A DNA stretch of 64,000 nt, from the sequence record PQ571289. One strand, written 5' to 3'. Positions 60,481-61,014 of this stretch are shown piece by piece. Within the stretch, counting starts at the first letter, position 1. Each line of letters begins with the position of its first letter. The DNA is from Escherichia phage EF1-1. Position numbers and translations under genes: made by a program. A model generated the notes under the pieces. It made no database searches, had not been told where the DNA came from, and saw only the letters and a program-made list of their open reading frames with translations.

Positions 60481-60670
60481 GTGGTAACAGGGTCGTTGAC
60501 TTTTGTTAAGAGGGGCTTGCACTGCGGTAGTGTTAGAGACTACTTCTTCAGAGGTTAGCTACCAAAGAGGAAAAGGAATAGTCTCGGCTCAAGAACTTTT
60601 ACGCTGAAAGTTGGGCTTGGTCTTAGAGAATGTAGCGGTTCTCTACAATCGTCAGCGTCTCTGTTACCAC
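60481..60670 (+). ncRNA. candidate structured RNA or MITE-like element bounded by perfect 10-bp inverted repeat
   Basis: GTGGTAACAG / CTGTTACCAC termini; nested helices ACGCTGA/TCAGCGT and TAGAGAA/TTCTCTA; no ORF; directly 5' of tRNA-Met. Confidence 0.3.
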
Positions 60671-60676
60671 ATTTAC

Positions 60677-60748
60677 GGCCCTGTAGCTCAATGGGAGAGC
60701 TGTCGGCTCATAACCGATAGGTAGCTGGATCGAAACCAGCCAGGGCCA
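60677..60748 (+). tRNA. tRNA-Met (CAU)
   Basis: manual cloverleaf: acceptor GGCCCTG/CAGGGCC, anticodon loop CTCATAA, CCA encoded. Confidence 0.8.
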
Positions 60749-60753
60749 CCAAC

Positions 60754-60825
60754 GTCTTTATGGTGTAATGGATAGCACAGGAGTCTTCTAAACTCTTAGT
60801 CAAGGTTCGATTCCTTGTAAAGACA
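60754..60825 (+). tRNA. tRNA-Arg (UCU)
   Basis: acceptor GTCTTTA/TAAAGAC, anticodon loop CTTCTAA, T-loop TTCGATT, CCA encoded. Confidence 0.8.
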
Positions 60826-60829
60826 CCAG

Positions 60830-61014
60830 AACATTTTAACATGAATTAGCTCAAGTGATTTGAACCCACTACTGATCATGGTGGCAGAGAATGAGGCAAG
60901 TATGTCAGACATTATAAACAAAGGCCACGGTTATATTAGAAGACATAAATGCTCGAAGAGCACCGTTCGTGGAGAACGGGGGTTGGTGGAGTCACCATTC
61001 ATGGTAAAATGTTT
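60830..61014 (+). ncRNA. candidate structured RNA or MITE-like element bounded by 17-bp imperfect inverted repeat
   Basis: AACATTTTAACATGAAT / ATTCATGGTAAAATGTT (16/17); internal hairpins; no convincing ORF. Confidence 0.25.

Follow-up and report, generated by a model that had tools for sequence, protein, structure and literature searches.

Candidate structured RNAs, one apparently derived from tRNA-Ile(GAU), in the tRNA cluster of Escherichia phage EF1-1

The tRNA cluster and the folds of elements A and B

Escherichia phage EF1-1 (sequence record PQ571289) carries a cluster of transfer RNA (tRNA) genes in which two large spacers, here called elements A and B, very probably represent conserved RNA structures of the + strand. 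The window is the whole stretch of DNA that was analyzed, 64,000 nucleotides in length. Its region 60400-62700 is matched by 271 phage records and shares 96.5% identity along its entire length with Escherichia phages phAPEC8 and UP17; the source of the window can be assigned to the phAPEC8-like phages of Phapecoctavirus (Stephanstirmvirinae). The cluster lies on the + strand and comprises 11 tRNAs according to ARAGORN and Rfam, two of which, tRNA-Met and tRNA-Arg (60677-60828), stand between A and B. Three near-consensus promoter-like sites of the AAAACTATTGACA type are found in the cluster, at 60438, 61025, and 61979, and the sole intrinsic terminator-like hairpin that closes it is located at 62702-62720. 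GenBank leaves the intervals of A and B unannotated or, in a few records, labels them 'hypothetical protein'. The features at and around the two elements are as follows.

60438-60467, + strand: promoter-like site P1 (TTGACA, an 18-nt spacer, and a TG-extended TAGGAT; 10 of 12 matches)
~60474-60676, + strand: element A, a predicted structured non-coding RNA of ~200 nt, 5' leader of the tRNA-Met/tRNA-Arg unit
60677-60751, + strand: tRNA-Met(CAU) (ARAGORN; RF00005, 64.5 bits; CCA encoded)
60754-60828, + strand: tRNA-Arg(UCU) (ARAGORN; RF00005, 66.3 bits; CCA encoded)
60828-61016, + strand: element B, a predicted structured non-coding RNA of ~189 nt, apparently derived from tRNA-Ile(GAU)
61025-61054, + strand: promoter-like site P2, directly 3' of B

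A preliminary description of this DNA had reported two elements without open reading frames (ORFs), similar in length, bounded by inverted repeats and situated between promoters and tRNA genes. The location is correct: A follows promoter P1 and ends 2 nt before tRNA-Met, and B extends from the CCA end of tRNA-Arg (60828) toward promoter P2, stopping 9 nt 5' of the site at 61025-61054. Both repeats were also recovered where they had been placed. The perfect 10-bp repeat of A, GTGGTAACAG/CTGTTACCAC (60481-60490 and 60661-60670), is by itself at chance level, as the longest perfect arms in 30 shuffles of the 2.3-kb region measured 8-11 nt, but it forms part of a larger closing helix of 22 bp, and a repeat search extends it to 35-nt arms (60477-60511 and 60640-60674) that are 77% complementary. 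The repeat of B consists of 17-nt arms with one mismatch (60830-60846 and 60997-61013) and exceeds chance expectation, because arms with no more than one mismatch attained 14 nt at most in 30 shuffles.

The predicted parts of element A, all on the + strand, are:

60477-60499: 5' arm of the closing helix, pairing with 60652-60674 over 22 bp
60652-60674: 3' arm of the closing helix, which stops 2 nt 5' of the tRNA-Met start
60519-60651: inner hairpins H1 (60519-60533), H2 (60536-60585), H3 (60586-60617), and H4 (60627-60651)

The minimum free energy (MFE) of A is -76.8 kcal/mol (z = -5.2), and none of 200 shuffles folded as well. In a comparison of strands, -76.0 kcal/mol was obtained for the + strand and only -53.7 kcal/mol for the - strand, as expected where G-U pairs matter and the RNA is thus made from the + strand. 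A consensus of five sequences contains 70 pairs in 10 helices. Under this consensus 98% of cells are paired, compared with 40-46% when the 3' partners are slid, and 10 of the 70 pairs show compensatory changes, compared with 0-2 in the slid controls. No inner hairpin is without a compensated pair among lineages that are ~80% identical. The closing helix behaves differently: 19 of its 22 pairs never vary, although the lineages differ by ~20% elsewhere. Some of its pairs are G-U (for example alignment columns 10/205 and 22/193), and one base per strand is left unpaired, U60493 opposite U60658. Within the covarying hairpins A retains invariant blocks of 18 nt and 11-12 nt; H2 has an invariant tip, GAGGUUAGCUACCAAAGA, and H3 is mostly invariant (CGGCUCAAGAAC, UUUACGCUGAA, GUUGGGCU). 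Transcription from promoter P1 would start at approximately 60473-60475, 2-4 nt ahead of the first paired base. A is a five-branch RNA whose invariant 22-bp helix joins the 5' end of the transcript to the tRNA-Met leader.

Element B has a different architecture, which comprises the following predicted parts on the + strand:

60828-60838: 5' arm of helix P1, pairing with 61005-61015 (11 pairs, 3 compensatory, 100% paired)
60840-60846 / 60997-61003: acceptor-like stem P2, CAUGAAU / AUUCAUG (5 pairs, 2 compensatory)
60848-60865: D-arm homologue P3, GCUC...GAAC in tRNA register
60866-60884: anticodon-arm homologue P4, a 6-bp stem (4 of 6 pairs compensatory)
60885-60979: insertion of ~95 nt at the position of the variable loop
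60980-60996: homologue of variable loop and T arm, GGGUU followed by P7, GGUG-GAGU-CACC (helix invariant)

The MFE of B is -55.2 kcal/mol (z = -4.3), and again none of 200 shuffles was as good. An independent MAFFT alignment of eight copies yields a consensus of 43 pairs in seven helices, 16 of which pairs changed in a compensatory manner. In a second alignment, of 15 distinct sequences and fitted to the model, 99.4% of cells are paired versus 37-49% in slid controls, with 16 compensatory pairs versus 1-4. A covariance search in related phages had been proposed at the outset, and for A as well as B it reveals pairing kept by compensatory and G-U changes.

Helix P1 of B begins at the terminal A of the tRNA-Arg CCA; its two strands come from the trailer of the preceding tRNA and the leader of the following one. 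P2 has two extra pairs in the window copy and is followed by U-A at the places of tRNA U8 and A9. The 7-nt loop of P4, CUGAUCA (60872-60878), is invariant in all 16 sequences. The insertion contains, in this order, the junction GAGAAUGAG, the irregular hairpin P5, the junction UCGAAGAG, and most of P6, both junctions being purine-rich. P5 consists of a base (60895-60898 / 60950-60953; 3 of 4 pairs compensatory), a variable middle, and an apical hairpin that by eye covaries among Seunavirus variants. In P6 (60958-60968 / 60974-60984) 4 of 9 pairs are compensatory. The last five bases of its 3' strand (60980-60984) are the GGGUU of the variable-loop homologue and thus serve twice, so that the boundary of the insertion is approximate. 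Between the covarying stems lie invariant single-stranded blocks, namely UUAGCUCA, ACUGAUCAU, GAGAAUGAG, UCGWAGAG, and GGUGGAGUCACC.

The latter block also bears on the possibility that A and B encode small proteins, such as the product of a 63-aa ORF at 60860-61051 or of short ORFs annotated in some records. Mechanical ORFs do exist in A and B, and hypothetical proteins have been drawn over one or the other in some GenBank records. However, the frames, which reach up to 63 aa in B, are broken in relatives (UP17, L119, and SSE121-type copies), indels of 1-2 nt separate the lineages, and GGUGGAGUCACC falls into different frames in the window and in Seunavirus. Protein-coding functions thus deserve next to no credence, and the earlier view that the elements lack a credible ORF is upheld.

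Although the two elements are indeed similar in length, this match seems coincidental and is no sign of kinship. A local alignment of A with B scores 16, equalled or exceeded by 197 of 300 shuffles; with no significant similarity in sequence between them, an origin as paralogues is ruled out. Each of them has an invariant apical loop with a 6-nt palindrome, UGAUCA in B and UAGCUA within GGUUAGCUACC (60553-60563) in A. Such loops could be self-pairing (kissing) loops.

Origin and distribution of the elements

The likeness of B to tRNA-Ile was first seen as a chance blastn match and then tested directly. In an alignment of 37 nt, UAGCUCAAGUGAUUUGAACCCACUACUGAUCAUGGUG against UAGCUCAGGUGGUUAGAGCGCACCCCUGAUAAGGGUG, the 5' part of B corresponds to positions 8-44 of Escherichia coli tRNA-Ile1 with a score that none of 1000 shuffles attained (z = 8.1). 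In the Seunavirus copies of B, GAGGUCGGUGG is identical in 11 of 11 bases to positions 44-54 of tRNA-Ile1 (z = 4.8, 1/1000 shuffles). These positions represent the variable loop and the 5' T stem, and the match is colinear with that of the 5' part. When B was compared with the 12 tRNAs of the window only the window's own tRNA-Ile scored (z = 7.2; z < 1.5 for the 11 others), and among 142 tRNAs from 13 phage loci the three best matches were all Ile-GAU. Order and register are shared from the acceptor stem through U8-A9, the D stem, the anticodon stem-loop (U33, G34-A35-U36, A38), and the variable loop to the 5' T stem. An origin of B from tRNA-Ile(GAU) is therefore highly probable.

Comparison with this ancestor indicates what was kept and what was lost. 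P3 retains the D-stem pairs 12-23 and 13-22, with 11-24 mismatched, but only a small hairpin is left of the collapsed D-loop, and G18-G19 are gone. The anticodon loop reads CUGAUCA in place of the CUGAUAA of tRNA-Ile; U33 and GAU are kept, and C occupies position 37, where a purine would be expected. This A37-to-C exchange is the only change in the loop and creates the palindrome UGAUCA, which holds both the anticodon GAU and AUC, its codon. In P7 a 4-bp stem with a tetraloop replaces the 5-bp stem and 7-nt T-loop, and as in tRNA it joins the 3' acceptor strand directly. Unlike in tRNA-Ile, the acceptor-like stem is buried within the 11-bp outer helix: the bases that follow it on the 3' side, GUAAAAUG, are paired in helix P1, and a single-stranded NCCA end does not exist. 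With the elbow partners (the GG of the D-loop and the T-loop) and the CCA end lost, B cannot be an ordinary tRNA, and it is expected to be neither charged nor used by the ribosome. Neither B nor A has a match to RF00005, even at E values up to 10, and ARAGORN calls neither at -ps80 or with introns allowed. B is best described as an apparently exapted paralogue of tRNA-Ile(GAU) in which a branched insertion of ~95 nt replaces the variable loop. This descent, like the lack of relationship between A and B, had been overlooked in the preliminary description. For A itself a tRNA origin was also considered and then dropped, as its match to the acceptor/D region of tRNA-Ile1 was insignificant (146 of 500 shuffles), its best matches among the 142 tRNAs were inconsistent (Cys, Pro, Leu), and it has no anticodon-type arm.

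The tRNA ancestry of B is also relevant to the question whether the elements act as DNA, for example as a cruciform, a protein-binding palindrome, an origin, or a packaging signal. Points in support are the inverted repeats, the Dam site (GATC) that the invariant loop of B forms in DNA, and a covarying palindrome in the promoter spacer 5' of A. On the other hand G-U pairs are abundant, the fold of A is 22 kcal/mol more stable on the + strand than on the - strand, the orientation of both elements is constantly that of the tRNA genes, and the multi-branch architecture together with the tRNA ancestry indicates RNA. A role at the level of DNA thus appears extremely improbable.

A was detected by blastn in 70 phage records. 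Copies in 61 of these are at least 99% identical, a second lineage at ~80% identity comprises phiWec179/181/188/190 and PsgM04F, and a third variant stems from one IMG/VR contig. A profile search recovered no phage locus outside Phapecoctavirus, to which A, as a single copy per genome, appears to be limited. B is more widely distributed and was found by blastn in 97 records. Its identity is at least 97% within Phapecoctavirus, 82% in the phiWec lineage, 71% in Klebsiella phage 05F01, and ~70% in Seunavirus, where it is carried by Salmonella, Cronobacter, and E. coli phages (PVP-SE1, GAP31, SSE121, 4MG). Scans of IMG/VR and metagenomes with sequence patterns, filtered by the model or profile, led to the same phage clades only; the other pattern matches (70-odd and 21) were discarded as chance matches in coding DNA.

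The order in Klebsiella phage 05F01 is tRNA-Met (2424-2499), B (2497-2692), and tRNA-Leu(UAA) (2690-2775), each flush with the next. In Seunavirus B is likewise flush with tRNA-Leu(UAA), and on the other side with a 108-nt tRNA-like gene. The site of this tRNA-Leu is taken by promoter P2 in the window, where the tRNA gene downstream of B has been replaced. The covariance model of B detected no copy in phi92, muut, W70 (rV5-like), or T4. In phi92 and muut the order is tRNA-Met, a 31-nt hairpin, and tRNA-Leu, and no trace of B exists at this place. A comparison of presence and absence across relatives, another check proposed earlier, thus separates 05F01 and Seunavirus from phi92 and muut.

Several side observations concern the flanks of B in Seunavirus. 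In SSE121 (L007, 516-1010) a gene for an HNH homing endonuclease is inserted between B and tRNA-Leu(UAA), and in PVP-SE1 (L005, 2690-3170) a gap of ~480 nt occurs at the same place and probably also represents an HNH insertion. The gene in SSE121 recalls segB of the T4 tRNA cluster. The 108-nt tRNA-like gene flush with the 5' end of B was inspected in Cronobacter phage EspYZU15 (L090, 1388-1495); it has the acceptor GCCGGGU/ACCCGGC, the T arm GGCGGUUCGAUUCCGUC, a CCA end, and a long extra arm, but is missed by ARAGORN and reaches only 27.5 bits with the tRNA-Sec model of Rfam.

This distribution also speaks to the second proposal of the preliminary description, that A and B are miniature inverted-repeat mobile elements or other mobile DNA inserted into the cluster. 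Both elements do have terminal inverted repeats, B is present in 05F01 and absent in phi92 between the same pair of tRNAs, and homing-endonuclease genes such as the HNH ORF of SSE121 invade the region. Mobile DNA would nevertheless be expected in more than one place, yet A occupies a single place in 70 of 70 records, and the 97 B records contain 98 places, that is, one in all but one record. The 64-kb window contains no second copy of either element, and a blastn search of 5,426 E. coli genomes revealed neither a copy nor a homologue or target. The tRNA-Met/tRNA-Leu junction of phi92 holds an unrelated hairpin without any relic of B, and no duplication surrounds B in 05F01. Moreover, the arms evolve like RNA helices, with compensatory and G-U changes, and not like transposase binding sites; what they enclose is a conserved structure in its own right, and the ancestor of B was a resident tRNA gene. 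A mobile origin is thus barely conceivable, and this part of the proposal is rejected.

Alternatively, the elements might be decaying tRNA pseudogenes or neutral spacers that look conserved merely through the kinship of the phages. B is clearly of tRNA descent, the cluster contains other degenerate tRNA-like pieces (61553-61629 and 62425-62503), and most Phapecoctavirus copies are at least 99% identical. However, B is kept across subfamilies at ~70% identity with compensated helices and invariant loops, whereas the middle of P5 has diverged past alignment between lineages. Invariance of the loops and junctions next to a part of the insertion that can no longer be aligned indicates differential constraint and not recent common ancestry. 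In A, compensatory changes occurred in all inner hairpins between lineages that are ~80% identical. Decay or neutrality is thus highly unlikely, and both elements are under purifying selection as + strand RNA structures.

Processing, possible functions, and related systems

A and B may thus be viewed as unrelated phage-encoded structured RNAs inside early tRNA transcription units. The 5' end of tRNA-Met is the expected site of an RNase P cut. Cleavage at the 5' end of the downstream tRNA would free each element, and at tRNA-Met it would leave an A RNA of ~200 nt with nearly flush, paired ends. On the upstream CCA side the transcript might be trimmed by endo- or exonucleases, and the long closing helices might permit additional cuts by RNase III. 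Paired termini would shield the products from 3' exonucleases and from decay that depends on the 5' end, so that they could accumulate as rnaC and rnaD of T4 do. Release of A and B as stable RNAs through tRNA processing is regarded as fairly probable on these grounds. The earlier suggestion of stable structured RNAs co-transcribed with the tRNAs is borne out as far as the sequence evidence goes, with helices kept on the + strand and closing helices that abut tRNA ends.

What the released RNAs might do is more speculative. The invariant loops and junctions could bind a partner in trans. B retains only the anticodon-arm side of tRNA-Ile, which makes mimicry of this arm the simplest idea; it might be directed toward a tRNA-targeting nuclease, a modification enzyme, or a synthetase, of either host or phage origin. 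A trans-acting role as mimic or decoy, favored for B, is a tentative suggestion that falls well short of being probable. The complete statement, from conserved structure up to stable RNAs that are released and serve a separate function, receives slight preference.

Several considerations weigh against this statement. The ends of the transcripts, their accumulation, and the processing enzymes are deduced from sequence, and a search of the literature found neither a transcriptome nor a description of these RNAs for the phages concerned. In the window a promoter and not a tRNA follows B, which leaves its 3' end undefined. A purely cis-acting role retains some probability. Only about four independent lineages of B and three of A underlie the covariation, to which neither the closing helix of A nor P7 of B, both invariant, adds a signal. 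The alignment of 15 B sequences leans to the structure to which it was fitted, a bias from which the MAFFT alignment is free. Finally, the P6 loop is variable (GUGGAG, GCUGAG, AUUGAG). A candidate function as a sponge for CsrA, which would employ GGA in loops, was dropped by eye, as this loop lacks GGA in UP17 and L119.

The main rival explanation is that A and B are only scaffolds for processing or stability in cis, resembling the RNase III stems on either side of 16S and 23S rRNA, and that any released pieces are by-products. Such scaffolds would bring processing sites together, insulate the folding of tRNAs, and guard the ends of the precursor. In agreement with this, the closing helices abut tRNA ends in all lineages, the 22-bp helix is the best-conserved part of A, at least two other spacers of the cluster (I2 and I4) are closed likewise, and a third (I3) has a tRNA-flush repeat. 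A helix of 22 bp is long enough for RNase III; the closing helix of B is marginal in this respect, since P1 and P2 together amount to 16-18 bp with an internal loop. However, a spacer of this kind needs the helix alone, yet A keeps invariant blocks inside covarying hairpins, and B keeps seven helices and several invariant loops over ~30% divergence. In addition, a 31-nt spacer without B suffices for maturation of the same tRNA-Met and tRNA-Leu in phi92 and muut. A role confined to cis is thus rather unlikely, and stable RNAs released by tRNA processing remain the preferred interpretation. Going further, B might be a purpose-built mimic of the tRNA-Ile anticodon arm that serves as a decoy for a host immune nuclease or a tRNA-binding enzyme, or that pairs loop to loop with itself or with tRNA-Ile, and might form, with A and the other helix-closed spacers, an unrecognized set of RNA effectors within the tRNA islands of large coliphages. 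This extension is doubtful.

No known RNA family accounts for either element. A search with 4227 Rfam families returned only tRNAs from the whole window at the gathering threshold, and tRNAs plus noise from the cluster and one Seunavirus locus at E values up to 10; ROOL, GOLLD, YrlA, and 6S are among the families to which A and B do not belong. A catalogue of csRNAs (PMC10690425) could not be mapped to the A and B loci. As to the general kind of RNA, the closest parallels are found in T4, whose tRNA cluster is annotated with the small stable RNAs rnaC (species 1) and rnaD (species 2). Like A and B, these are non-tRNA RNAs without an assigned function that lie on the tRNA strand and adjoin tRNA genes. 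Like B, rnaC bears relics of a tRNA, a T-arm-like GGGUUCGAAUCCC and paired ends, but rnaC keeps the T-loop, whereas B has lost it and keeps the anticodon arm. The T4 RNAs are also smaller (139 and 119 nt versus ~190-200 nt), their predicted folds differ, and nothing in the T4 tRNA cluster matches the covariance model of B or the profile of A significantly. Position in the operon and paired termini of A and B are compatible with stable RNAs of the rnaC/rnaD type.

By-products of pre-tRNA maturation in E. coli, such as 3'ETS-leuZ and internal spacers, reportedly act as sponges for small RNAs (sRNAs), as attributed to Lalaouna et al. in 2015. Similar to A and B they are spacers or leaders of a tRNA transcript, and those of the leuZ type are released by maturation and act in trans. 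However, they are short and engage in linear pairing with Hfq-dependent sRNAs, whereas A and B are large multi-helix folds for which no complementary target was identified. The Y-RNA-like YrlA, also a structured RNA of tRNA-like fold or descent with a new purpose, combines a closing stem made by its two ends with a tRNA-like module; its T and D arms, the very parts that B gave up, are preserved. The YrlA model reached 22.8 bits in our searches (gathering score 69), and this match lies on real tRNAs and not on A or B.

Two further phage RNAs, ROOL and GOLLD, are structured non-coding RNAs of phages and prophages that have no assigned function and often occur beside tRNA islands (PMC12286853); GOLLD often exceeds 800 nt (PMC12286853). 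Both are far larger than A and B, and their Rfam models match neither. A likeness may exist in so far as all are structured phage RNAs near tRNA islands and the palindromic loops of A and B could support RNA-RNA contacts of the kissing-loop type. Within this phage group a precedent for RNA mimicry is provided by the rV5-like myovirus PhiTE, whose non-coding pseudo-ToxI protects the phage by imitating a host RNA (PMC3475682). Pseudo-ToxI is a tandem array of 36-nt repeats, whereas Tandem Repeats Finder detected no tandem repeats in A and B. The yjdF riboswitch governs an ORF downstream, and none follows B; it too is a structured RNA related to tRNA by fold or descent and put to a new purpose (PMC9142559). 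Both A and B represent new RNA families, and their general kind is already known from the stable structured RNAs of phage tRNA clusters.

Phage tRNA clusters are usually annotated as tRNA genes separated by empty spacers, but here the large spacers are conserved folded RNAs. Annotation of these genomes can be corrected, and two or more RNA families are ready for covariance models. As phAPEC8-like and PVP-SE1-like phages are widely used therapeutic and model coliphages, caution is advisable when 'non-coding spacers' are deleted in their engineering. B records the conversion of a tRNA gene in which elbow and CCA end disappeared jointly, the anticodon arm survived, and a branched domain of 95 nt was added, and is an unusually clear case of a tRNA gene turned into another RNA. 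Constructs with defined ends could be designed to probe the long-unexplained stable RNAs of phage tRNA regions, and the activity of phage tRNA mimics against tRNA-targeting defences can now be tested.

Further structured spacers and neighbouring features

At least three further spacers of the cluster start with an inverted repeat flush with the upstream tRNA. Two of these, 61244-61368 and 62093-62189, are wholly closed by an inverted repeat that abuts the tRNAs, and in the third the repeat (61709-61794) follows tRNA-Thr and is flush with this upstream tRNA. In view of these helix-closed spacers A and B belong to a set of structured RNAs in these tRNA islands. The first of the spacers contains the following feature.

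61245-61369, in the + strand cluster: element C, helix-closed, between tRNA-Ser(GCU) and tRNA-Tyr

Six of the 40 predicted pairs of element C are compensated among six sequences. It is the most widespread of the elements, with homologues in phi92, muut, an rV5-like phage, Klebsiella phage 05F01, and the T5-like Salmonella phage EH7, and it is unannotated in every record examined. In the window and in EH7 it lies 5' of tRNA-Tyr, and in phi92 and muut between tRNA-Ser(GCU) and tRNA-Lys/Tyr. Closed by 27-nt arms and with a loop rich in C and U, spacer E (62094-62191) shows 100% identity among the five Phapecoctavirus loci retrieved. Spacer D (61711-61965, 255 nt; 82-98% identity) opens with a hairpin of 23-nt arms flush with tRNA-Thr, but its overall fold is no better than those of shuffles.

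Other observations concern the tRNA genes themselves. The gene for tRNA-Ser(UGA) (61064-61153) was missed by ARAGORN at default settings and called at -ps90; the tRNA-Sec model of Rfam assigns it 37.4 bits, which is under the threshold of this model. The degenerate tRNA-like pieces at 61553-61629 and 62425-62503 were called by ARAGORN at -ps80 only and may represent decaying tRNAs or additional tRNA-derived RNAs.

Upstream of A, a 10-bp palindrome, AACGTATCCT...AGGATACGTT (60443-60472), spans the spacer and the -10 element of promoter P1. In the IMG/VR variant L076 both halves are altered together (AAGCGTGTCTTA...TAAGATACGCTT), which suggests an operator or another selected hairpin that overlaps the promoter of the A/tRNA-Met unit. 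Just 5' of promoter P1, at 59699-60430, three small ORFs of 61, 83, and 82 aa are located on the + strand; their matches are confined to PHROGs without an assigned function. The second ORF (83 aa) contains two CxxC pairs, and the third (82 aa) is kept directly 5' of A in every Phapecoctavirus variant examined. Lastly, near-identical Phapecoctavirus genomes have been deposited under unlikely hosts, as Campylobacter phage B15, Acinetobacter phage ABPW7, Pseudomonas phage PsgM04F, and the 'Dompiswa' phage. These records probably represent contaminants or mis-assigned hosts.

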